A stretch of DNA of 64,000 bases, taken from NCBI GenBank assembly GCA_003452965.1, contig DMMW01000002.1, forward strand, positions 43,975 to 107,974, written 5' to 3'. Under the pieces are notes generated by a model, which was not told the DNA's origin, did no database searches, and saw only the letters and a list, made by a program, of their open reading frames with translations. The position numbers and the translations under genes were made by a program. Origin of the DNA: Elusimicrobiota bacterium. GTDB taxonomy: Bacteria; Elusimicrobiota; UBA8919. Numbering within the stretch: position 1 is the first letter of the stretch; every line of letters begins with the position of its first letter. Of the stretch, positions 3,092-64,000 are shown one piece after another.

Positions 3092-3106
3092 CTGATTACA
3101 CAGATT
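3092..3106 (-). repeat. junction motif, minus orientation (CTGATTACACAGATT), 12 nt before ATG 3119
   Basis: direct read of sequence. Confidence 0.8.
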
Positions 3107-3118
3107 AAATGGATAACA

Positions 3119-5476
3119 ATGAAGAAGATTAAAAGTATAATAATATTATCTGTAGTTATATTTTCAGCTGTTTTATATAGTATAGAGAAACAATGGTATG
3201 ACAAAGAGGGCCATATAAACATACTTAAGACTTGTGCTATGTACAGTCCGATAGGGACGGTTGGAGCAAACGGGCAGATAAAGGCGAACGGGATAGACGT
3301 AGGGTATTTGGCATATGGACCTTACGTACAGTTAAAGGCAGGCAAATATGCTATTAAGTATAAATTGATTTTAAATAATCTGAATATGGATGATGATAGT
3401 GGCAGGGTTGTAGGATATTGTGATGTGGATATAGAAGGTCATCCCGAGCCGGCGTATCATATTGATATGACTGTCGGTGATTTCAAGAAAAAGAATCCTA
3501 GAGAGGTAATGTTAAAGTTTACTGTGCCTGACGGGTTGCCGAAGGTACAGTTCAGGGTATATCAGTATTACGGGAATAATCATATGCTTTTAGGATTGAA
3601 GTTATATCCCAAGAGTTTATCATTATTAACAAGTTTATTAAAGAATAATTTTTTGACATATAATGTGATTTTATTTAGTACGATATTTTTCATATTTTTA
3701 TGCATATATTTTAAAATATGGAAGATATATAAATTGAAACTGTTTTTTAATAAATATAAATCTTTTAAGTTTGATGAATTAGAAGAGCATAATAATTCTG
3801 TTTCAATAAACTTCATTGTACAATTATGTATTATATCATTTTTTACTTTATTATCATTGAATGCTTTTTGGATGAACAGAATGGCTATTCCTGTAATTCC
3901 TTTATGGCAAACTGTATTCATAGCTATTGAAATATCAGTATTTGTGTTAATTATTAGAATATTTAATTTAAGATTGGATATTAAAAAATTTGATATATTT
4001 GATATTTCTTTATTCTTTTTAGTATTTCTGTTTATTTTTTATGTTTTAATAATGCCTTCAATACCCTCATTAATGCCAGTCAATTTCAGCAATGATTGTG
4101 TAACTCATTATTCATGGATGGACCATGTTTATAATAAAAGGACGCTTAATGGTTCGGAAATAGCATTTTATCCGTTCGGATATCATGTGACAACTGTAAT
4201 GTTATCAAAACTTACCGGTATCCCTGCGGTAAAAATGATGAGTATTTTATTGGCATTTGTCATAGCATTATCCACGGCTATTACATATGCTATTATAATA
4301 AGGGTTTTTAATTTTAAGAATGACGGTAAATTAGTTGCATTATTGCCGATATTTACATTTTTTTGGGTTAGAGGATATTATGATTTTGTGTTCAACAGGT
4401 TTTTTCATGGTTCTATGGTATTCAGTTATCTTTTTATGGTGTCGTTTTTTTGGGCTTTGATTGAATATAAAAATTATCCTAAATGGTTCAGTTATCTTTC
4501 GCTAAATTTATCAGCAATAGGGTTGGCTTATTCTTATACATCGTATTTGCCGATGTTGGTTATGCCTTTATTTTTAACGATTTTAATGGAAGATAATAGG
4601 AAATTTACCAGACGGCTTAAAGATTTATTGATTACTATATTGCCAGTTGTTATTTTAAGCATTATTCATTTGAAATCAAAAGGGACTTCCAATCTCGGTT
4701 TGGCTGTATTAAACCATGAAGGATATTGCATAAAATTTAATTTTATGAATTTCGGAGATTTTGGGAATAATGTTAAAGGCGGGTGGTTTTTAATTTTATC
4801 TTTAATTGGTATACCTGTAATAATATCAGGATTTAAGAAGAATATTGCTGTTATAAATTTTACTTTAAGTTTCTTATTGTACTTCTTTCTATTTTATATA
4901 TTAAAACATAATTTTGGAAAGTTTTCATATTATCAGGCGTATAAAATATTATATTTTTCTCCATATATAGCGGTTATTTATATTGCAGCAGTTTTATATT
5001 TTATTAGAAAACAATTGATTAAAATATTTAAACCATTTATTGGTGAAAAATTACATATAATATTATTTATTATATGGTTGTTGATTATTATTAATAAAGC
5101 TTCAATTGTTTATGATATGGAGAATTACAGACCTTGCTATCCAGAAATGTTGAAAGAATCGCATTATTTAACGATTGATTGGGCAAGGAAAAATATAAAA
5201 GAAAATTTTGATTACATATATCATCATCCAAATTTAGGCAACTGGATGCGGCACGGATTTATGAAGGATACTCTTAAAAATATAACACCCGATGAATATT
5301 ATTATCAAGTTTTTGTAATGCCTGTTCAAAAATTATCTGATTGGCTAAATAAGTCCAAAAAAGGAAGAATTGCTGTTGTGGATGATTTAAATACACCGCC
5401 ACTGACTGAGAAACAGAAAAGGCAGTTTGAAATATTATATCAAAAAGAAAATAGCGCAGTGATAAAAAAAATATGA
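3119..5476 (+). CDS. large polytopic membrane protein (about 14 predicted TM helices) with N-terminal copy of the same ~110-aa domain; possible glycosyltransferase/polymerase, function unknown
   Basis: N-terminus LKTCAMYSPIG..GYLAYGPYVQLKAGKYAIKYK..VGYCDVDIEGHP..FTVPDGLPKVQFRVYQYYGNNH repeats domain of previous gene; remainder strongly hydrophobic; start placed at MKKIKS after motif 3092-3106. Confidence 0.45.
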   Translation: MKKIKSIIILSVVIFSAVLYSIEKQWYDKEGHINILKTCAMYSPIGTVGANGQIKANGIDVGYLAYGPYVQLKAGKYAIKYKLILNNLNMDDDSGRVVGYCDVDIEGHPEPAYHIDMTVGDFKKKNPREVMLKFTVPDGLPKVQFRVYQYYGNNHMLLGLKLYPKSLSLLTSLLKNNFLTYNVILFSTIFFIFLCIYFKIWKIYKLKLFFNKYKSFKFDELEEHNNSVSINFIVQLCIISFFTLLSLNAFWMNRMAIPVIPLWQTVFIAIEISVFVLIIRIFNLRLDIKKFDIFDISLFFLVFLFIFYVLIMPSIPSLMPVNFSNDCVTHYSWMDHVYNKRTLNGSEIAFYPFGYHVTTVMLSKLTGIPAVKMMSILLAFVIALSTAITYAIIIRVFNFKNDGKLVALLPIFTFFWVRGYYDFVFNRFFHGSMVFSYLFMVSFFWALIEYKNYPKWFSYLSLNLSAIGLAYSYTSYLPMLVMPLFLTILMEDNRKFTRRLKDLLITILPVVILSIIHLKSKGTSNLGLAVLNHEGYCIKFNFMNFGDFGNNVKGGWFLILSLIGIPVIISGFKKNIAVINFTLSFLLYFFLFYILKHNFGKFSYYQAYKILYFSPYIAVIYIAAVLYFIRKQLIKIFKPFIGEKLHIILFIIWLLIIINKASIVYDMENYRPCYPEMLKESHYLTIDWARKNIKENFDYIYHHPNLGNWMRHGFMKDTLKNITPDEYYYQVFVMPVQKLSDWLNKSKKGRIAVVDDLNTPPLTEKQKRQFEILYQKENSAVIKKI

Positions 5477-6786
5477 AACATATGTCAATTTACCAGTTGC
5501 TTGGGAAAATTCCCAATCATATATGGGTTGCGGTAAGCAATTGGTGTAGCAGAATAATTATTGCAATGGTTCAGCTGGTAAGCATACGAATGCTTTTGGC
5601 TGGGTTTGGAAGCGAAAAATTCGCAGTTTTCGTGCTTTTGACGAGTTTAATAGGATGGTATTCTTTATCAGATATGGGAGTGGGCTTAAGTTTACAGAAT
5701 TATATATCGGAAAAAAGGTCACTGAATGAACCATATACGGATTATTTAAGTTCTGCTTTTGTAATTACTTTAGTTCTCTGGTGTTTAGGTATTTTCTTCC
5801 TTTTTTTAATAAGTCCGGTAATAGCTCCAATTTTTCTAAAACAATTTACTTTTATTAGCGACGCTGAGAAGATAAAATATTTTTTTATAATAGGATTCAT
5901 ATATTTTAGCGTAACTTTAAGTAGTACTACTTATAAAATATGGTATGCCGAGCAAAAGGGATATTTGGCTAACATAGTTCCCGCAATTGCATCTTTAATT
6001 GGTTTATTTGGTGTGTGGTATGTTTTAAAATTAGATGTAGAAAACAAATTGTTGATAGCATTAATTGCATTCACTTCACCGGCGATGATTTTAGGGGTAT
6101 TTTTTTTCTTTTTAAAAACCATTGTATTTTCAAAGTTAAGACTGCATAAAGATATATTTGTATTTAAGAATTTGGTGAATCGTGCTGGAAGATTTTTCTT
6201 TTTTGCGTTGATAGGATTATTTATTACACAGATTGATTATTTTGTTTTGTCACAGACAGTAAAAGCATATGATATAGTTATATATAATATTTCAAATAAA
6301 CTTTTTAGTTTTGCATTTTCAATATATGTTGCAGTTCTTACTGCATGGCATCCTGTAAATGCGGAGATGTATGTCAGAAATGAATTTTTCAATATTAGAA
6401 GATATGCAAAAACATATATAATTGCAGGGATATTAGGAATAATATTGTTTACCTTTGGATTTATGATATTTAAACAGAAAATAATAATGATTTTATCGCC
6501 CCAAGAAAACATAATCATACCTGTTGTATTTATATTATTGCTCGGTATTTATTTTGCAATAAGGATTTGGAATGATACTTTTGTTACATTGCTTGTTAGT
6601 ATGAATAAATTTCGTCATATATTTATTATTGCTCCGATTCAAATTGTAATTTCGGCTTTATTACAAATAACATTGGCATATAAATTCGGGATAAACGGTT
6701 TGATTGTTGGCTTGATAATTGCTTATCTTTCAACAAGCGCTTGGTTTTTACCGAAAGTATTCAAAAAACATGTTTTAATGGATTGA
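5473..6786 (+). CDS. wzx: MOP-superfamily polysaccharide flippase (Wzx-like)
   Basis: 437 aa, about 12 hydrophobic helices, Polysacc_synt-like N-terminus; ATGA overlap with upstream stop. Confidence 0.6.
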   Translation: MKHMSIYQLLGKIPNHIWVAVSNWCSRIIIAMVQLVSIRMLLAGFGSEKFAVFVLLTSLIGWYSLSDMGVGLSLQNYISEKRSLNEPYTDYLSSAFVITLVLWCLGIFFLFLISPVIAPIFLKQFTFISDAEKIKYFFIIGFIYFSVTLSSTTYKIWYAEQKGYLANIVPAIASLIGLFGVWYVLKLDVENKLLIALIAFTSPAMILGVFFFFLKTIVFSKLRLHKDIFVFKNLVNRAGRFFFFALIGLFITQIDYFVLSQTVKAYDIVIYNISNKLFSFAFSIYVAVLTAWHPVNAEMYVRNEFFNIRRYAKTYIIAGILGIILFTFGFMIFKQKIIMILSPQENIIIPVVFILLLGIYFAIRIWNDTFVTLLVSMNKFRHIFIIAPIQIVISALLQITLAYKFGINGLIVGLIIAYLSTSAWFLPKVFKKHVLMD

Positions 6787-8590: not shown

Positions 8591-9541
8591 ATGAAAGTAT
8601 TAATTACCGGGATTTCAGGATTCGCTGGAAATTTTATGTATGATTTTTTAACCAATATAAAAGATATTGATATTTATGGGATGTATTGGGATTTTAATAG
8701 GAAGAATAATATTCAGAAAAAATTTGATAAAGCAAAACTATGGGAAATTGATATGATAAATGATACACAATTATTGGACAATATACTAAAAGAAGTCCAA
8801 CCCGATATAATAATGCATTTTGCTGCATATGTAACTGTAATAGGTTCCTTTAAGAATCCAGGTCCGATATTTCAAACTAATTTAATTGGTACAGTAAATT
8901 TGCTTGAATCTGTAAGGAAAATAATACCGGAATCCAAAGTTTTGATAACCGGTTCGGCAGAGGAATATGGTAAGGTTCCCAATGATAAACTGCCGATAAA
9001 GGAAGAGTATTCGTTAAATCCGGTAAGTCCGTATGCGCTTAGTAAAAAATTTCAGGAAGATATAGGATTATATTATTTCAATAATTACGGAGTAAAGGTG
9101 TATTTTACTAGAACATTTCATACAGCAGGGCCAAAACAACCGATTGGTTATGTCTGCACCGACATAGCCAAGCAGATTGCTGAAATTGAAAAAGGGAACG
9201 CAAAAAGTATCCAAGTCGGTAATTTAATCGCGAAAAGAGATTTTTCCGATATTAGAGATGTTATAAATGCCTATTGGCGAATTATAAATTACGGAAAAGC
9301 GGGAGAGATTTATAATGTGTGCAGCGGGACATCCGTATCTATACAGGAAATATTGGATAGATTGATAAAATATTCAAACAAAACCATTAAAGTTGAAGTG
9401 GATAAAGACAAATTAAGACCGTCCGATGTTCCGGATTTTGTTGGCGATAATACAAATTTAAAAAAAATAGGATGGAGTCAGAAATATACTTTAGAAGATA
9501 CGTTAAGTGCAGTTTTAAATTGGTGGCGAAAAAGCATCTGA
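8591..9541 (+). CDS. NAD-dependent epimerase/dehydratase of the GDP-4-keto-6-deoxy-D-mannose reductase (Rmd)/GMD subfamily
   Basis: MKVLITGISGFAGN Rossmann start after RBS aagaggag; SPYALSK (YxxxK), FHTAGPKQP, VGNLIAKRDFSDIRDVINAY resembling Rmd VGNLEARRDFSDVRD. Confidence 0.6.
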   Translation: MKVLITGISGFAGNFMYDFLTNIKDIDIYGMYWDFNRKNNIQKKFDKAKLWEIDMINDTQLLDNILKEVQPDIIMHFAAYVTVIGSFKNPGPIFQTNLIGTVNLLESVRKIIPESKVLITGSAEEYGKVPNDKLPIKEEYSLNPVSPYALSKKFQEDIGLYYFNNYGVKVYFTRTFHTAGPKQPIGYVCTDIAKQIAEIEKGNAKSIQVGNLIAKRDFSDIRDVINAYWRIINYGKAGEIYNVCSGTSVSIQEILDRLIKYSNKTIKVEVDKDKLRPSDVPDFVGDNTNLKKIGWSQKYTLEDTLSAVLNWWRKSI

Positions 9542-9552
9542 TTACACAGATT
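9536..9552 (-). repeat. junction motif, minus orientation (ATCTGATTACACAGATT), overlaps stop of upstream gene, 4 nt before ATG 9557
   Basis: direct read of sequence. Confidence 0.8.
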
Positions 9553-27002: not shown

Positions 27003-27127
27003 GCCCTGAAAATAGATATTGTGTCGCATTGTAGTTGCCGATCTTGCTTGCCCGAACGTTTTTGTTCTCAGGGCTCGGCTATAAGTCAATCAAGATTGAT
27101 AAATACAGGACAGCGAGGAGACCTCGC
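27003..27127 (+). other. structured GC-richer spacer between split transketolase subunits (several stem-loops: GCCCTGA..TCAGGGC, TCAATC-AA-GATTGA, GCGAGG-AGA-CCTCGC)
   Basis: inverted repeats read directly; about 230-nt non-coding gap in an otherwise tightly packed cluster. Confidence 0.4.
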
Positions 27128-27204
27128 AAATACAATAAAATCCTAAGAATCACTACACAGATACTTATTCAATGGTCTTATAATAACTTTGGAATAATAT
27201 TAAT

Positions 27205-32241: not shown

Positions 32242-32263
32242 AATATTTTTTGAAGGAGCGAAT

Positions 32264-32488
32264 ATGTCAGAATTGTTAAAAATGCTTCGTTGTCCTCATT
32301 GTGTAACGCGCGGTAAAAAAGGTTTTTTGATGTTTTCAGGAAAATGGTTTATTTGTAAAGAACCGGATTGCCAGCGTAAATACCCTGTTTATAAGGGGAT
32401 TCCGATTATGCTCACAAGGGAAGGAGATTTTTATCATTATAAAAGGGCACTTGAAAAAGCAGATATAAAAGGGAGTAACAATGGCTAA
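32264..32488 (+). CDS. Trm112/YcaR (UPF0434) family small zinc-ribbon-like protein
   Basis: LLKMLRCPHC...FICKEPDC..YPVYKGIPIML matches Trm112-like fold; RBS aaggag. Confidence 0.65.
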   Translation: MSELLKMLRCPHCVTRGKKGFLMFSGKWFICKEPDCQRKYPVYKGIPIMLTREGDFYHYKRALEKADIKGSNNG

Positions 32489-35712: not shown

Positions 35713-35771
35713 ATCCTGCCCGAAGACCATTCACTATCGCTTTTATAAACGTGGTCTTCTGGCTGCAGGAT
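35713..35771 (+). promoter_or_regulatory. long interrupted inverted repeat (ATCCTGCCCGAAGACCA ... TGGTCTTCTGGCTGCAGGAT) ending 16 nt before ATG 35787
   Basis: about 15 bp paired in two blocks around a 21-nt loop. Confidence 0.4.
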
Positions 35772-41928: not shown

Positions 41929-41992
41929 TAAGAACATAAATATACATTAAAAGATTTTAGTGATAGAAGAAATTAGGATGATTCAAGATAGT

Positions 41993-42002
41993 TCTGTGTA
42001 AT
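41993..42002 (+). repeat. partial junction motif TCTGTGTAAT(TTGTA), 57 nt before neuC-like ATG
   Basis: shares TCTGTGTAATTTGTA 15-mer with copy at 60474. Confidence 0.5.
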
Positions 42003-42059
42003 TTGTAAAATCAATTAATTCAGTAATAGCTTGCAGAGCATTTTAATGGAGAATATAAA

Positions 42060-43253: not shown

Positions 43254-43319
43254 TAGAAAGGAAAGTGCGATAGTGGGATTGTGGGATAGGGGGTAGTCAT
43301 GATTTCTTCTACTTGTAGT

Positions 43320-43337
43320 TGCTAATCTTGATTAGCA
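43320..43337 (+). promoter_or_regulatory. 18-bp perfect palindrome TGCTAATCTTGATTAGCA upstream of neuA-like gene (operator-like)
   Basis: 8-bp arms, 2-nt centre; 19 nt before ATG 43356. Confidence 0.45.
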
Positions 43338-49035: not shown

Positions 49036-49040
49036 TGTGT

Positions 49041-49115
49041 TACCGTTAAAAAAGTCATTAACGGTATCGATTACATCCATCCTCCGTAGCAGTAGTCTGC
49101 TACTGCGGAGGATGG
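49041..49115 (+). terminator. two consecutive stem-loops (TACCGTTAA..TTAACGGTA; CCATCCTCCG-TA-GCAGTAG-TCTG-CTACTGC-GGAGGATGG) after membrane-protein gene
   Basis: second is a 17-bp GC-rich stem followed by GCAGATTTT. Confidence 0.5.
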
Positions 49116-49131
49116 GCAGATTTTAAAAATA

Positions 49132-49144
49132 GATTACACAGATT
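49132..49144 (-). repeat. junction motif, minus orientation (GATTACACAGATT), 21 nt before ATG 49166
   Basis: direct read of sequence. Confidence 0.75.
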
Positions 49145-59101: not shown

Positions 59102-60418
59102 ATGACACTATTCGGTACTATCAGAAAAAAAATATTATCAAAAAATATTGAAAAAAGAAATCTTGAATATCTTCAAGTTATGGAAGATAAACAAAGATTA
59201 TTTTTTCAGTTGGGAAAATTTAATAAATGCTGGCAGAAAATAATTAAAAATATTCAATATTATTCAGATTTAGTTAATGATAAGAAACTTCCAAAAAGAT
59301 TTGAGACATGGAAAGAGTTTTTAGAAAAAGTGCCGGTTATTACTAAAAAAACTATACAAGAGAGTAAAAATATAATGTTTGATAAGTCAAGGAATATTGA
59401 TTTTGTACGTACTACAGGAGGAACAACCTCACAGCCGATTCAATTACCTGCATGGAATTCGGAGATGAGAATAACAGAGCTGGATATGTGGTTCGCAAGA
59501 AGTTGGTATGGAATATATCCAAATAGCAAATTATTTCTGATATGGGGTCACAGCCATTTGTTGGGGGCAGGAATAAAAGGAAAAATTAACAAATTTAAAA
59601 GAAAATTTAAAGATTATCTTTTGGGATATTACAGGTTTTCAGCATATAATATGAATGAAGAAAATATGCGTAGAGCAGCTTTGGAAATGTTGGATTTTCA
59701 TCCGGATTATATTATTGGTTACAGCGTGGTTTTAGATTCTTTTGTAAGAGCAAATAGAGATTTAATAACGGAACTAAGAAAAATAGGGGTTAAGGTAGTA
59801 ATAGGCGCTGCCGAATCATTTCCTTCAGATAATACCGAAGAAATACTTGGTAAAATGTTTAATTGTCCGGTTGGTATGGAATATGGTTCGGTTGAAACAA
59901 ATTTAATTGCCCATACTCATCCTGATGGCGGATACAAGGTTTTTTGGCAAAACTATTTTGTAGAAGCAATTGATAACGGATTACAAAATGGCAAAATAAT
60001 AAGGGTGACTAGTCTTTATCCGAGATGTTTTCCTTTGATTCGTTATGAGATTGGCGACGCTGCGCAATTATTTGAAGGGGATAACGGGATTGGATTAACC
60101 CGTTTTCAGAAGGTTATCGGCAGATGTAATTTATCTGTTAATTTGAAAGATGGAAGTATAATTCATTCCGAAGTTTTTACACATGCTTTACGTGATTGCG
60201 AAGGTATTATTCGTTATCAGGTGATACAGAATAAAGATTCAATAAGATTGTTAATAATTAAAAATGAAAAATTTAATAATAATATGGAAATAAGAATTAA
60301 AGAAAAATTTTCTAAAATTCATCCTGATTTAAATAAAGTAAAAATTGAAGTAGTGCAGAATTTGGAACAAACTTTAGCAGGTAAAACACCGATGATAATA
60401 AGACATACTGTGGATTGA
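59102..60418 (+). CDS. adenylate-forming enzyme of the CapK / phenylacetate-CoA-ligase / F390-synthetase-like family
   Basis: RTTGGTTSQP (AMP-binding TSGTTG-type), length and topology of PaaK-like enzymes. Confidence 0.55.
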   Translation: MTLFGTIRKKILSKNIEKRNLEYLQVMEDKQRLFFQLGKFNKCWQKIIKNIQYYSDLVNDKKLPKRFETWKEFLEKVPVITKKTIQESKNIMFDKSRNIDFVRTTGGTTSQPIQLPAWNSEMRITELDMWFARSWYGIYPNSKLFLIWGHSHLLGAGIKGKINKFKRKFKDYLLGYYRFSAYNMNEENMRRAALEMLDFHPDYIIGYSVVLDSFVRANRDLITELRKIGVKVVIGAAESFPSDNTEEILGKMFNCPVGMEYGSVETNLIAHTHPDGGYKVFWQNYFVEAIDNGLQNGKIIRVTSLYPRCFPLIRYEIGDAAQLFEGDNGIGLTRFQKVIGRCNLSVNLKDGSIIHSEVFTHALRDCEGIIRYQVIQNKDSIRLLIIKNEKFNNNMEIRIKEKFSKIHPDLNKVKIEVVQNLEQTLAGKTPMIIRHTVD

Positions 60419-60473
60419 TTTTATTTAATTACGTTAATTTAAAAGCAGATTATCCGTATTCTATTGTTTAGTT

Positions 60474-60485
60474 AATCTGTGTAAT
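60474..60485 (+). repeat. junction motif AATCTGTGTAAT (+), left copy of a direct pair
   Basis: direct read of sequence. Confidence 0.8.
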
Positions 60486-60496
60486 TTGTACACGGA

Positions 60497-60543
60497 GCTC
60501 GTAGCCACTGCAACGAGCGAGTATGCAACCCCGTTTTACGGGG
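60497..60543 (+). other. two GC-rich hairpins (GCTCGT..ACGAGC; CCCCGT-TTT-ACGGGG) between direct motif copies
   Basis: read directly. Confidence 0.5.
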
Positions 60544-60555
60544 CAAACATCATCT

Positions 60556-60570
60556 AATCTGTGTAATCAG
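60556..60570 (+). repeat. junction motif AATCTGTGTAATCAG (+), right copy, 18 nt before ATG 60589
   Basis: direct read of sequence. Confidence 0.8.
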
Positions 60571-60588
60571 GTTTTACAAGGAAGGATA

Positions 60589-61710
60589 ATGAAGATAGTA
60601 ATTAATGCTTATTCTGCGCGAAGGGGTGGTGGGCAAACATATTTAACAAACCTGCTTAAAAATATAGATTCAAATCCCAGATTGGAAGTTTATATTTTCG
60701 CTGACGAATCACAGTATATACCCAACCATCCAAATATTAAAAAGATAAAAACAAACTGGTCGACTTGCAATCCTTTTTTTAGAACAATATGGGAAAAGTT
60801 TATATTGCCTATATTTTTAAAAAAGATAAAAGCGGATGTTCTTTTTTGTCCTGGCGGACTAGTGAATACAAGAGTTCCGGTTGGATGTAAAATTGTTACA
60901 ATGTTCCGTAATATGATTCCGTTTGATATTGAGCAAAGGAAAAAATACCCGTTTGGATATATGAGGTTTCGTAATTGGTTATTGGAGAAACTTTTTTTGA
61001 AAAGCATGCTAAAAGCGGATTTGGTTATTTTTATATCGGAATATGCTAAAAAAGTTATTGAAAATAGAATACCCATTAAATTAAAAAAAACAGTATTAAT
61101 ACCTCATGGTATAAACGAAGAATTTAAGGTTTCTGATAGGACCAATATGATAAGACCTAATCAATTACCAAAAGAAGATTATATTCTTTACGTTTCTTTG
61201 TTTGACGTATATAAAAATCAGATTGAAGTTGTGCAAGCATATAATTTATTGAAAGAAAGGCGTAAAACTTTCGAAAAACTGGTTTTTGTCGGTTTTAATG
61301 ATACGCAATATGGTGAAAGAGTTAAAAAAGAAATATTGAGATTAGGCTTGAAAAATGATATAATCCTGCTTGGCAATATTGATTATAAAGATTTGCCAAG
61401 TATATATAAGTTTGCTAAAATCAATATATTTGCATCTGAATGTGAAAATTGCCCAAATATACTGCTTGAAGCAATGGGAGCAGGAAGGCCTTTAGTTGTC
61501 TCAAATAAGCCACCGATGCCTGAATTTGGCGGTGATTCTGCGATTTATTTTAATCCTAGGTCACCGGAAGATTTATGCAATAAAATTTTTACTATTATTG
61601 ATAAGCCCGGGGAATTGAATGGGTTATCTAAAAAAGTCTTTGAGCGTTCCTTGTTATATGATTGGAAAGAAACTTCAAGAAAAACATGGGAAGCGTTAAA
61701 AAGTTTGTAA
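60589..61710 (+). CDS. GT4-family glycosyltransferase
   Basis: MKIVINAY after RBS aggaagg; CPNILLEAMGAGRPLVVSN E-x7-E region. Confidence 0.75.
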   Translation: MKIVINAYSARRGGGQTYLTNLLKNIDSNPRLEVYIFADESQYIPNHPNIKKIKTNWSTCNPFFRTIWEKFILPIFLKKIKADVLFCPGGLVNTRVPVGCKIVTMFRNMIPFDIEQRKKYPFGYMRFRNWLLEKLFLKSMLKADLVIFISEYAKKVIENRIPIKLKKTVLIPHGINEEFKVSDRTNMIRPNQLPKEDYILYVSLFDVYKNQIEVVQAYNLLKERRKTFEKLVFVGFNDTQYGERVKKEILRLGLKNDIILLGNIDYKDLPSIYKFAKINIFASECENCPNILLEAMGAGRPLVVSNKPPMPEFGGDSAIYFNPRSPEDLCNKIFTIIDKPGELNGLSKKVFERSLLYDWKETSRKTWEALKSL

Positions 61711-62971: not shown

Positions 62972-62987
62972 TCCCGATTTATCGGGA
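62972..62987 (+). promoter_or_regulatory. 16-bp perfect palindrome TCCCGATTTATCGGGA after GT4 gene / before RmlD-like gene
   Basis: 7-bp arms, 2-nt centre. Confidence 0.4.
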
Positions 62988-63050
62988 GAAGAATCTTAAA
63001 ACCGAGATACTTCGCTATCGCTCAGTATGACAAAGAAAGTATATAAGAAA

Positions 63051-63917
63051 ATGAAGATAATAATTTTGGGTGGGACTGGATTGCTCGGGCATACACTTTG
63101 GGAATATCTTTCCTTGAAAAATTCCGATACTTATACTACTGTAAGATTATCGCGATCCAATTATGAAAATTATAAGAGTAATAAAGTTATAGATAATGTT
63201 GATATAACTGATATTGAAAATGTTGAAAAGATACTTAATAAAATTAAACCGGATATTATTCTGAACTGTATAGGTGTAACTAAAAGAAGGGAAAATATAG
63301 ATAATTATCAATATCTAAGTATTCTTTTGAATGCCTTATTCCCGATAAGATTATCGCAGTGGGCTAAAAAAAATAATTCAAAAGTTATCAATTTCAGTAC
63401 CGATTGTGTATTTGACGGTAAAATCGGAAATTATTCGGAAGATAGTCCTACAAATGCAACAGATGTTTATGGAAAAACGAAATCACTCGGAGAAATTAGG
63501 GATGATAATGCTCTTACATTACGTTCTTCGTTTATTGGCTTTGAACTTTATCATAAGACAGAATTATTGGAATGGTTTCTATCGCAAAAAGTAACAGTGA
63601 AAGGTTTTAAAAATGCGATATATTCAGGATTAACCACTTTGGAATTAAGCAGGGTAGTTGAGAATATATTATTATCATATCCTAAAATGACCGGACTTTA
63701 CAATATCTCAAGCGAGTCGATAAATAAATATGATTTATTGATGTTGATTAGAAAAAAGTTTAAACTTGTTACGAAAATAATACCGGATGAAACTTTCTCT
63801 TGTGACAGAAGTTTAAATTCTTCAAAATTTAGAAAAGAACTTAATTATAATCCGCCTTCATGGGAATCTATGATTGCCGAATTATCTGAAAAATATTTAC
63901 AAAAAAAGGATGTTTGA
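63051..63917 (+). CDS. dTDP-4-dehydrorhamnose reductase-like SDR (RmlD family)
   Basis: MKIIILGGTGLLG, ILNCIGVTK, INFSTDCVFDG, YGKTKSLGE. Confidence 0.6.
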   Translation: MKIIILGGTGLLGHTLWEYLSLKNSDTYTTVRLSRSNYENYKSNKVIDNVDITDIENVEKILNKIKPDIILNCIGVTKRRENIDNYQYLSILLNALFPIRLSQWAKKNNSKVINFSTDCVFDGKIGNYSEDSPTNATDVYGKTKSLGEIRDDNALTLRSSFIGFELYHKTELLEWFLSQKVTVKGFKNAIYSGLTTLELSRVVENILLSYPKMTGLYNISSESINKYDLLMLIRKKFKLVTKIIPDETFSCDRSLNSSKFRKELNYNPPSWESMIAELSEKYLQKKDV

Positions 63918-63928
63918 TTGCACAGATT
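63917..63928 (-). repeat. junction motif variant, minus orientation (ATTGCACAGATT), starts at last base of upstream stop codon
   Basis: one mismatch to ATTACACAGATT. Confidence 0.6.
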
Positions 63929-63975
63929 ATTATAATCAGGTTACTAAGGTTCTTAAGAAAAAAGATTTTGGTTCT

Positions 63976-63987
63976 AATCTGTGTAAT
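63976..63987 (+). repeat. junction motif AATCTGTGTAAT (+), inverted partner of 63917 copy
   Basis: direct read of sequence. Confidence 0.75.
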
Positions 63988-64000
63988 TGGTTTAGAAAAT

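Follow-up and report, generated by a model that had tools for sequence, protein, structure and literature searches.

The window analysed here is a 64,000-nt stretch of DNA from an Elusimicrobia metagenome-assembled genome (MAG) of Rifle groundwater. It is a 64-kb polysaccharide locus with all genes on one strand. Near its right end, two direct copies of a short motif enclose a GC-rich double hairpin upstream of a glycosyltransferase gene. This feature makes up the right half of one gene-less member of a dispersed repeat family, here called R, and the ends of this member are those of a unit that carries a PDDEXK_3 nuclease gene. The whole inserted element is 178 bp long (60403–60580), gene-less and decayed, and it has no counterpart at the orthologous site of a syntenic relative (locus L258). 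Taken overall, the best explanation is that it is a decayed, gene-less R copy sharing its ends with the PDDEXK_3 unit and driven by the nuclease. We regard this as probable. The spread would resemble either homing or the system of REPINs (hairpin-forming doublets of repetitive extragenic palindromic, REP, sequences) and RAYTs (REP-associated tyrosine transposases). The element is apparently undescribed in the searchable literature, where we looked for GxxExxY, PDDEXK_3, PF13366, the repeat sequence, and REPIN/RAYT plus nuclease and found no description of the association.

The motif pair belongs to a dispersed repeat family

The feature lies in a 170-nt gap between a CapK_C-like gene (59102–60418) and a gene for a GT4 glycosyltransferase, the downstream gene named in the original prediction. 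The true ATG of the GT4 gene is at 60589, and the Shine-Dalgarno sequence AAGGAAGG precedes it. Exact 13-mers (TAATCTGTGTAAT) were found at 60473–60485 and 60555–60567 on the + strand, 82 nt apart from start to start. The pair had been predicted correctly except for its start, which is 60473 and not 60474. The 71-nt segment between the copies has 52% GC, versus about 30% for the window. It holds both predicted hairpins, GCTCGT..ACGAGC at 60497–60518 and CCCCGT-TTT-ACGGGG at 60529–60543. The RNA fold of 60486–60554 reached −26 kcal/mol (z = −4.4), and none of 200 shuffles was as stable. The left copy extends to a 15-mer, TCTGTGTAATTTGTA, and its predicted exact recurrence at 41993–42007, upstream of a PF02350 UDP-GlcNAc 2-epimerase gene, was also seen.

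R is a 12–14-nt repeat, GATTACACAGAT, composed of 9-mer units AATCYGYG-N; inverted copies read ATCTGTGTAATC. The window contains eight exact copies of its core 11-mer, ATCTGTGTAAT, where 0.03 would be expected, and none of 100 shuffles reached eight. With four copies carrying one mismatch, the window holds 12 copies of R. Nearly all are intergenic, on either strand, and often a few nt from a start codon.

A 16-mer scan of one genome per species found clustered R copies in MAGs of Elusimicrobia, Thermodesulfovibrionales/Nitrospirota, Schekmanbacteria, Calditrichota, Desulfobacterota, and Planctomycetota. A 22-base pattern, made of two R copies 8–14 nt apart, was present in at least 120 JGI metagenome tiles and in one viral contig only. 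The 120 metagenome loci collected by this pattern (L128–L247) were used for the statistics of clusters, flanks, and open reading frames (ORFs) given below.

The usual layout is a quartet, written "<< >>", of two inverted and two direct copies. Among the matches listed, clusters of type '<<>>' numbered 45, '<>>' 24, '<<>' 14, '>>' 28, and '<<' 31, and there was no simple '>><<' cluster. The spacing of pairs among the matches listed was 19–23 bp from start to start, with a mode of 22; outliers of 55, 67, and 112 bp were pairs split by a hairpin. The central spacer of quartets was mostly 5–27 nt (one of 43). Outer copies have the consensus tAATCTGTGTAATCA, and inner copies have taATCTGTGTAATCt. 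The outer copies form terminal inverted repeats (TGATTAC...GTAATCA), and the left arm of these is degenerate in the copy at 60403–60580. Quartets fold into a single long hairpin of −34 to −78 kcal/mol.

Because the motif recurs widely and is normally paired 19–23 bp apart with nothing structured in between, its copies are not target-site duplications. Nor are they the termini of the GC-rich core, the other role proposed for them. In the larger element, the two direct copies of the feature are the inner and the outer repeat of the right end.

A flank hairpin adjoins about half of the outer copies, and a fold of −8 kcal/mol or better was obtained for 85 of 185 flanks. From organism to organism the stem of this hairpin covaries, and its loop, approximately GAAAAA(C/G)T, is conserved (L128–L247; window 49040–49066). 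Arrays occupy short gaps. Genes were called on either flank of 99 clusters, and they were tandem in 72 of these, divergent in 14, and convergent in 13; four further clusters sat within ORFs. Pairs had no orientation preference relative to the genes. Rfam gave no match at gathering score in the window and no credible match at E ≤ 5 for the copy in L003; in 12 array-bearing loci it returned tRNA and RNase P only. Tandem R arrays of 6–10 copies with a period of 22–23 nt were also observed (L151 1668–1885; L256 5375–5640).

R arrays bracket a PDDEXK_3 nuclease gene

When the ORFs of the metagenome loci were clustered, one family directly adjoined the arrays. It is a protein of about 122 aa belonging to PF13366 PDDEXK_3 / TIGR04256 "GxxExxY". 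No other conserved ORF was found next to the arrays among about 790 ORFs of the 120 loci. R or closely related repeats bracketed a PD-(D/E)XK gene of about 122–130 aa in 15 of 15 intact loci, from at least eight phyla. Bracketed genes were present in metagenome loci (L129, L138, L153, L203, and L234), in the source genome (L248), in a second Elusimicrobia MAG (L252), in WOR-3, Nitrospinota, Omnitrophica, and Deltaproteobacteria (L253, L254, L256, and L257), and in a diverged Planctomycetota subfamily described below. Beyond the source-genome gene, the bracketing was seen in six homologues from other phyla.

In an intact element, a flank hairpin is followed by two R copies about 22 bp apart; after a short spacer come two inverted copies and then a second flank hairpin. 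The nuclease gene is placed between the '<<' pair and the '>>' pair, where it replaces the central spacer of the quartet. In most intact loci its start codon, its stop codon, or both lie within an inner R copy. The ATG and the inner left copy often overlap (ATTACACAG directly followed by ATG), and the stop usually overlaps the inner right copy (TAA directly followed by TCTGTGTAAT). PDDEXK_3 was the only ORF between '<' and '>' copies 350–450 nt apart among the matches listed. Several bracketed nuclease genes were frameshifted or truncated.

The source MAG has its own nuclease (P0090, locus L248). The left flank of its gene reads ACATCCTATAAAGAGAAGGATGT-CTG / ATTACACTAAT / .. / ATTACACAAAT / tATG, and the right flank reads TAA / TCTGTGTACT / .. 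/ ATCTGTGTAAT / CAGATATAATGCAAATTATATC-GGGAG-ATG. On other contigs of this MAG, R arrays lie before purE, pyrB, a thyA-like gene, and a gene for a large membrane protein. These arrays share a common module (alignment A2) of the hairpin ACATCCT-N9-AGGATGT, two inverted copies, a spacer, and two direct copies about 22 bp apart. Its right end is CAGATATAAT-N4-ATTATATC, followed by a Shine-Dalgarno sequence and ATG. The L248 flanks exactly match the flanks of these gene-less modules. Another MAG has R arrays before carA and a nucleoside transporter gene.

A protein search yielded 996 relatives with E ≤ 1e-10. Relatives from WOR-3, Deltaproteobacteria, Thermodesulfovibrionales, Elusimicrobia, Nitrospirae, Omnitrophica, Ratteibacteria, and Nitrospinota were 70–92% identical. 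The Pfam/NCBIfam match, the catalytic motif, and the predicted fold place the protein in the PD-(D/E)XK superfamily. Its active-site residues E28, D67, E77-x-K79, and Q92-xxx-Y96 are invariant, and the fold predicted for it matches restriction-type PD-(D/E)XK nucleases; no solved structure of a homologue was found by sequence search. PDDEXK_3 / GxxExxY comprises 9,386 representative clusters at E ≤ 1e-3 (clusters at 50% identity), and a superfamily survey lists its function as "Unknown", with "multiple transfers" (PMC3424549). Some relatives of about 260 aa have two matched stretches and are tandem domain fusions. Small free-standing GIY-YIG ORFs of 87–91 aa were also noticed (L001 14628–14903; L254 9194–9457), and they may be another class of mini nuclease genes.

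In Planctomycetota, a subfamily of the nuclease is 39% identical, and the inverted arrays on either side of it consist of diverged 9-mers (CACGGATT or CACAGATT). This hints that the nuclease subfamily and the repeat sequence may have diverged together. The gene lies in the same rpsP-trmD operon in two genomes, L261 (Phycisphaerales CP070747.1) and L262, with genes at 2501–2878, and the shared position hints at vertical inheritance.

The orthologous rpsK-rpsD gap was found with four states of the element. The nuclease gene is intact in L138 and L153 and frameshifted in L170. In L218 it is a stub of the first ~30 and last ~8 nt, with only '>>' left, and L166 has only '>>'. These graded states indicate that solo pairs are products of erosion.

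The element was absent from a syntenic relative

In the relative L258, gene order is kept, the GT4 protein is 87% identical, and the CapK_C-like protein is 67% identical. L258 has no gap, and its CapK_C-like and GT4 genes overlap. Its empty site reads ...ATGGTAATAAG / GAAGGATAATGAAG, and the window reads ...ATGATAATAAG / ACATACTG...TTTTACAAG / GAAGGATAATGAAG at the same site. The 178-nt insert starts with ACATACT..., a worn left hairpin, and ends with ...TTTTACAAG. The original prediction of a small, structured insertion resembling a MITE (a miniature transposable element with inverted repeats) was therefore supported as to an insertion, as the gap is absent from L258 and the motif is multi-copy. 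It was wrong about the unit, which is about 60403–60580 and not 60474–60570. L258 contained no R copies in 8.9 kb, and its junction between RmlD and FnlA was also empty.

The left end of the element is an altered hairpin remnant at 60403–60418 on the + strand (canonical form ACATCCT-N9-AGGATGT), recognized from alignment A2, L248, and the MAFFT alignment. A degenerate outer left copy, ATTACGTTAAT, follows at 60428–60438 on the − strand and matches ATTACACAGAT at 7 of 11 positions. The degenerate inner left copy, ATTATCCGTAT, lies at 60449–60459 on the − strand, also with a 7/11 match. Both are in register in the MAFFT alignment, and they are 21 nt apart (canonical spacer TTAAAAGCAG). The inner left and inner right copies are separated by a 15-nt central spacer, inside the 5–27 nt range of quartets. 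The first 13-mer at 60473–60485 (+) is the inner right copy, and its TAA is the nuclease stop codon in gene-carrying elements. After the private GC-rich insertion at 60486–60554 (+), the outer right copy plus CAGG (TAATCTGTGTAATCAGG) at 60555–60571 (+) forms the right terminus of the element, with E = 1e-4 in nhmmer. At the left junction, AAG occupies 60400–60402 (+). AAG also closes the insert at 60578–60580 and is present once in the empty site of L258, a weak indication of a possible 3-bp duplication.

The CapK_C-like protein now takes its last four residues and its stop codon from the hairpin remnant at 60403–60418. The protein ends with HTVD in the window versus KDNEDSN in L258, and the alignment of the two ends at ...GKTPM(I/V)IR. 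From the alignment, the insertion appears to have broken the overlap of the two genes and rewritten the C-terminus of the upstream protein, leaving the Shine-Dalgarno sequence of the GT4 gene intact. It would also have added three or four predicted stem-loops to the intercistronic transcript. Most likely, the element has no local function beyond these side effects of its insertion.

Two further relatives, L259 and L260, carry the filled gap nearly unchanged. From just after the GT4 start they are L258-like, including an extra methyltransferase gene (alignment A3). Judged by these sequences, they are recombinants with a breakpoint at or just after the element. Loci L001–L010 were discarded as a comparison set because they are from the same population, have identical gaps, and were uninformative.

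The GC-rich double hairpin is a private insertion

The double hairpin is a private insertion of about 60–70 nt in the spacer of the right-hand pair. The pair of the feature is a normal pair of about 22 bp that this insert stretched to 82 bp. Apart from this locus as found in other assemblies, neither the window nor 1.87 Mb of fetched DNA yielded a further copy of the core at 60486–60554, so the predicted repeated cassette with a GC-rich core was not borne out. The search for further copies thus spoke against a cassette, and the comparison of orthologous loci, with the empty site in L258, spoke for an insertion. No terminator-like site or U tract of an intrinsic terminator was found in 59800–61000; the second hairpin is followed by CAAACATC.

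Unrelated GC hairpins split same-orientation pairs in L252 (twice), L149, L165, L225, and the window at 49070–49143. In L252, next to a live nuclease gene, the order is TAA / TCTGTGTAAT, a 57-nt GC hairpin, ATCTGTGTAAT-CAGG, a Shine-Dalgarno sequence, and ATG. The pair-spacer position therefore tolerates unrelated GC hairpins in other members of the family. We considered the GC hairpins as GTAG-tagged REPs and dropped the idea as unconvincing, since only the 6-mer CGTAGC was shared, by three inserts. A separate observation is that the hairpin TCCCGATTTATCGGGA at 62972–62987 of the window also appears, unchanged, in the L165 element on an unrelated metagenome contig, as one of the two hairpins inserted there.

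Other R copies and repeats in the window

Solo R copies were found at 897–912 (+; ATCTGTGTAATCAGAT) in the gap before a GT2 gene, at 3095–3105 (−) directly upstream of a gene start, and at 9541–9551 (−) at a gene junction, 5 nt ahead of a GT2 gene's ATG. An exact copy at 6223–6233 (−) lies within the predicted ORF 5473–6786. One-mismatch copies are present at 27152–27162 (−) in a 229-nt gap and at 41992–42007 (+). The latter carries the 15-mer of the left copy and belongs to a decayed element upstream of the epimerase gene.

A second decayed element covers 49040–49143 (−; nhmmer E = 1e-6). It consists of a flank hairpin with the conserved loop AAAAAGTCAT (49040–49066), a degenerate copy (49070–49080), a GC hairpin (49078–49114), and an exact R copy (49133–49143). 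A near-intact quartet at 63917–64000 is cut by the window end and continues in L003 at 3860–3960.

Just beyond the window end, a structured module of about 75 nt, here called the S-unit, adjoins or nests in R arrays. Four examples were found, at L003 3967–4040 and 4055–4132, L225 546–620, and L260 4856–4942, and none had an Rfam match. The S-unit is built of GGTAAC, the 5′ strand of stem P1, a hairpin TTAAATCTC-NNN-GAGATTTAA, the 3′ strand of P1, and CCC-NNN-GGG-CA. P1 shows compensatory changes (TTGCT/AGCAA, TCGCT/AGCGA, and CCGAT/ATCGG). A covariance model of the four S-units (R1) did not match 60486–60554 at E ≤ 10 with filters off, and the core was rejected as a member.

The junction of RmlD and FnlA (window 63918 onward) has three alleles. 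It is empty with overlapping genes in L258 (8340–8420). In L260 (4760–4985) the gap measures 171 nt, contains one S-unit, and lacks R, and in L259 (4780–5140) a 303-nt gap holds an R quartet and two S-units. R and S-unit modules were gained or lost independently at this junction.

Three further observations were made in the window. A second, hairpin-like repeat containing GTAG, TTGTAGTTGC(C/T)(G/A)ATCTTG, is present in two intergenic gaps at 27029–27038 and 43313–43322. The heptamer CTATCGC occurs in GC-rich intergenic segments at 35734–35740, 63015–63021, and 43267–43273 (−); it also has two coding matches, and it may be chance. The 239-nt "gap" at 32242–32480 holds an ORF of about 70 aa, zinc-ribbon-like with CxxC...CxxC, which is below the 100-aa ORF cut-off.

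Proposed mechanism and alternative explanations

The best reading is that the element is a selfish element of the REPIN/RAYT-like or homing-like kind with a new enzyme class. R arrays would be putative recognition or cleavage sites of the GxxExxY nuclease, which may act in trans on gene-less copies. Two modes are conceivable. Gene-less copies may spread in a REPIN/RAYT-like way, or the gene may enter "empty" quartets by gene conversion, as homing endonucleases do. Later erosion by deletion would leave half-sites and solo copies. Pair spacers that tolerate hairpins and flank hairpins that covary suggest that a folded single-stranded or cruciform form matters.

Several points weigh against this reading. 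PD-(D/E)XK enzymes hydrolyse DNA and do not rejoin it, so a transposition chemistry is not obvious. Binding or cutting of R by the nuclease and mobility of the element are predictions from sequence. No consistent target-site duplication was present at five other copies inspected. The left-hand degenerate copies, at 7/11 each, were not significant by nhmmer. We infer that the indel was an insertion in the window; precise loss in L258 is the alternative. Finally, the metagenome loci were collected through the repeat, and the frequency of repeat-free PDDEXK_3 genes is covered for the two sampled subfamilies.

The nuclease could instead be a secondary, homing-like parasite of the quartet centre, with the arrays belonging to another mobile or host system such as a transposase, a RAYT, or a host DNA-binding protein. 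The gene does sit exactly in the central spacer, its many degraded copies recall the life cycle of homing endonucleases, and hydrolytic nucleases of the PD-(D/E)XK superfamily cannot transpose DNA alone. One locus has a Y1_Tnp fragment 3 kb away, but this fragment has no R flanks, and the survey of about 790 ORFs in 120 loci gave no other conserved ORF beside the arrays. Together with the joint divergence of repeat and nuclease subfamily in Planctomycetota, this makes such a parasite rather unlikely. Much less probable is a fixed regulatory architecture in which R is the operator of a transcription factor for polysaccharide or nucleotide genes and the GC hairpins are a terminator or attenuator. 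R copies just upstream of gene starts, arrays before purE, pyrB, and the thyA-like gene of the source MAG and before carA and the nucleoside transporter gene of another, and the phasing of about 22 bp with TATAAT after the outer copy in Elusimicrobia do resemble an operator-promoter layout. However, the arrays have no orientation preference, 72 of 99 clusters lie between co-directional genes, and some are within ORFs. The genes that follow have no relation to one another (S4, fabF, histidine kinases, and glycosyltransferases), syntenic L258 lacks the gap, and there is no U-tract terminator. A promoter scan did not call the TATAAT sites, and the start and stop codons of the nuclease are embedded in the repeats.

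Least credible is the original form of the idea, in which the 97-nt unit 60474–60570 is a MITE-like cassette with a mobile GC core and the motif copies are target-site duplications or terminal direct repeats. Two exact 13-mers do flank a structured and compositionally foreign core. This version hardly survives the lack of a second core, both in the window and across 1.87 Mb of related loci, the hundreds of 13-mer pairs that lack a core and are spaced at about 22 bp, and the real indel boundaries at 60403 and 60580.

Other candidates were set aside. A nucleotide-metabolism regulon, suggested by the neighbours purE, pyrB, thyA, carA, and nupC, was dropped because neighbours were unrelated in a wider sample and followed no orientation rule. 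A sigma-70 promoter was rejected, as the promoter scan did not call the Elusimicrobia TATAAT after the outer copy. Compared by eye, R did not fit LytTR- or PhoB-type direct-repeat activator sites, Xer/dif-like sites (TATAAT-GTAT-ATTATA), DnaA boxes, DNA-uptake sequences, integron attC sites, or Tn7/Mu-type ends. These known-site candidates were superseded once the link to PDDEXK_3 was found.

Returning to the nuclease-driven element, we extend it more tentatively, at somewhat below an even chance, to the whole family. GxxExxY / PDDEXK_3 proteins may be the dedicated nucleases of an unrecognised, cross-phylum class of selfish repeats, made of AATCYGYG 9-mers in foldable quartets. Such a class would be analogous to REPIN-RAYT and mechanistically distinct from it. 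The elements would move or be copied between operon genes, rewrite gene ends, add stem-loops, and spread horizontally among anaerobic groundwater and sediment bacteria.

The link between repeat and nuclease at the family level is the interesting result. PDDEXK_3 / GxxExxY, a large family with no assigned function, gains a proposed role and a concrete DNA partner. To our knowledge, RAYTs were until now the enzyme class tied to REP-type repeats; the scheme of an enzyme plus a repeat would gain a second class beside them, with the same repeat in at least eight phyla. For the annotation of uncultured genomes, the family can account for intergenic motifs that recur, for GC hairpins, and for gene ends that vary in long polysaccharide operons, and such repeats should not be taken for regulator sites. 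The elements may also mark recombination seams, as the breakpoint of L259 and L260 lies at or just after the element.

Comparison with known systems

The element resembles MITEs in being shorter than 200 bp, non-coding, and multi-copy with inverted termini. Like them, it shows presence/absence polymorphism (L258 is empty at two junctions) and has a longer coding relative with shared ends. Unlike in MITEs, the coding form carries a PD-(D/E)XK nuclease (PF13366) only and no recognised transposase. No consistent target-site duplication was seen at the copies inspected, and each end combines two phased repeats in a sub-terminal position with a flank hairpin whose stems covary.

PD-(D/E)XK homing endonucleases exist, for example I-Ssp6803I. 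As with homing endonuclease genes, a small free-standing nuclease ORF lies in the middle of a symmetric site, and intact, frameshifted, and deleted copies coexist. The "site" of R, however, is a dispersed, intergenic, multi-copy repeat and not a single conserved host gene, and usually a single gene-carrying copy was seen per locus set.

The BIMEs (bacterial interspersed mosaic elements) of E. coli and the Correia elements of Neisseria are mosaic intergenic repeats with variable hairpin modules, which are co-transcribed with operons and add stem-loops or signals. The R family is a similar mosaic of short repeats and variable hairpins; BIMEs and Correia elements differ in their sequences and have no associated PD-(D/E)XK gene. 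The intervening sequences of 23S rRNA carry a small ORF between inverted arms that form a long stem, and their distribution is patchy. The R element shares the small ORF between stem-forming inverted arms, whereas intervening sequences lie inside rRNA genes and their ORF encodes a four-helix bundle.

The closest known system is REPIN-RAYT (Bertels & Rainey 2011, PMC3116915; PMC3337134). The enzyme differs, as it is a PD-(D/E)XK nuclease of about 122 aa and not an HUH Y1 transposase (PF01797). None of the R-flanked genes was a Y1 HUH transposase; the flanked gene was PDDEXK_3 in all 15 intact loci. In its account of REPs, PMC3733652 gives a GTAG or CGTC tag beside a palindromic REP as the criterion. 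R is instead a non-palindromic 12-mer in 2+2 arrays and contains no GTAG or CGTC tag; CGTAGC occurs in three GC-hairpin inserts only. Moreover, the nuclease is 70–92% identical across phyla and the repeat is likewise similar or exact, which suggests horizontal transfer, unlike the mostly vertical RAYTs. The syntenic position of the gene in two Planctomycetota (rpsP-trmD) is in turn a RAYT-like trait. Both systems have densely occurring short repeats outside genes, inverted doublets of them that can form a long hairpin, and an enzyme gene flanked by the repeats, with many gene-less copies per enzyme gene.

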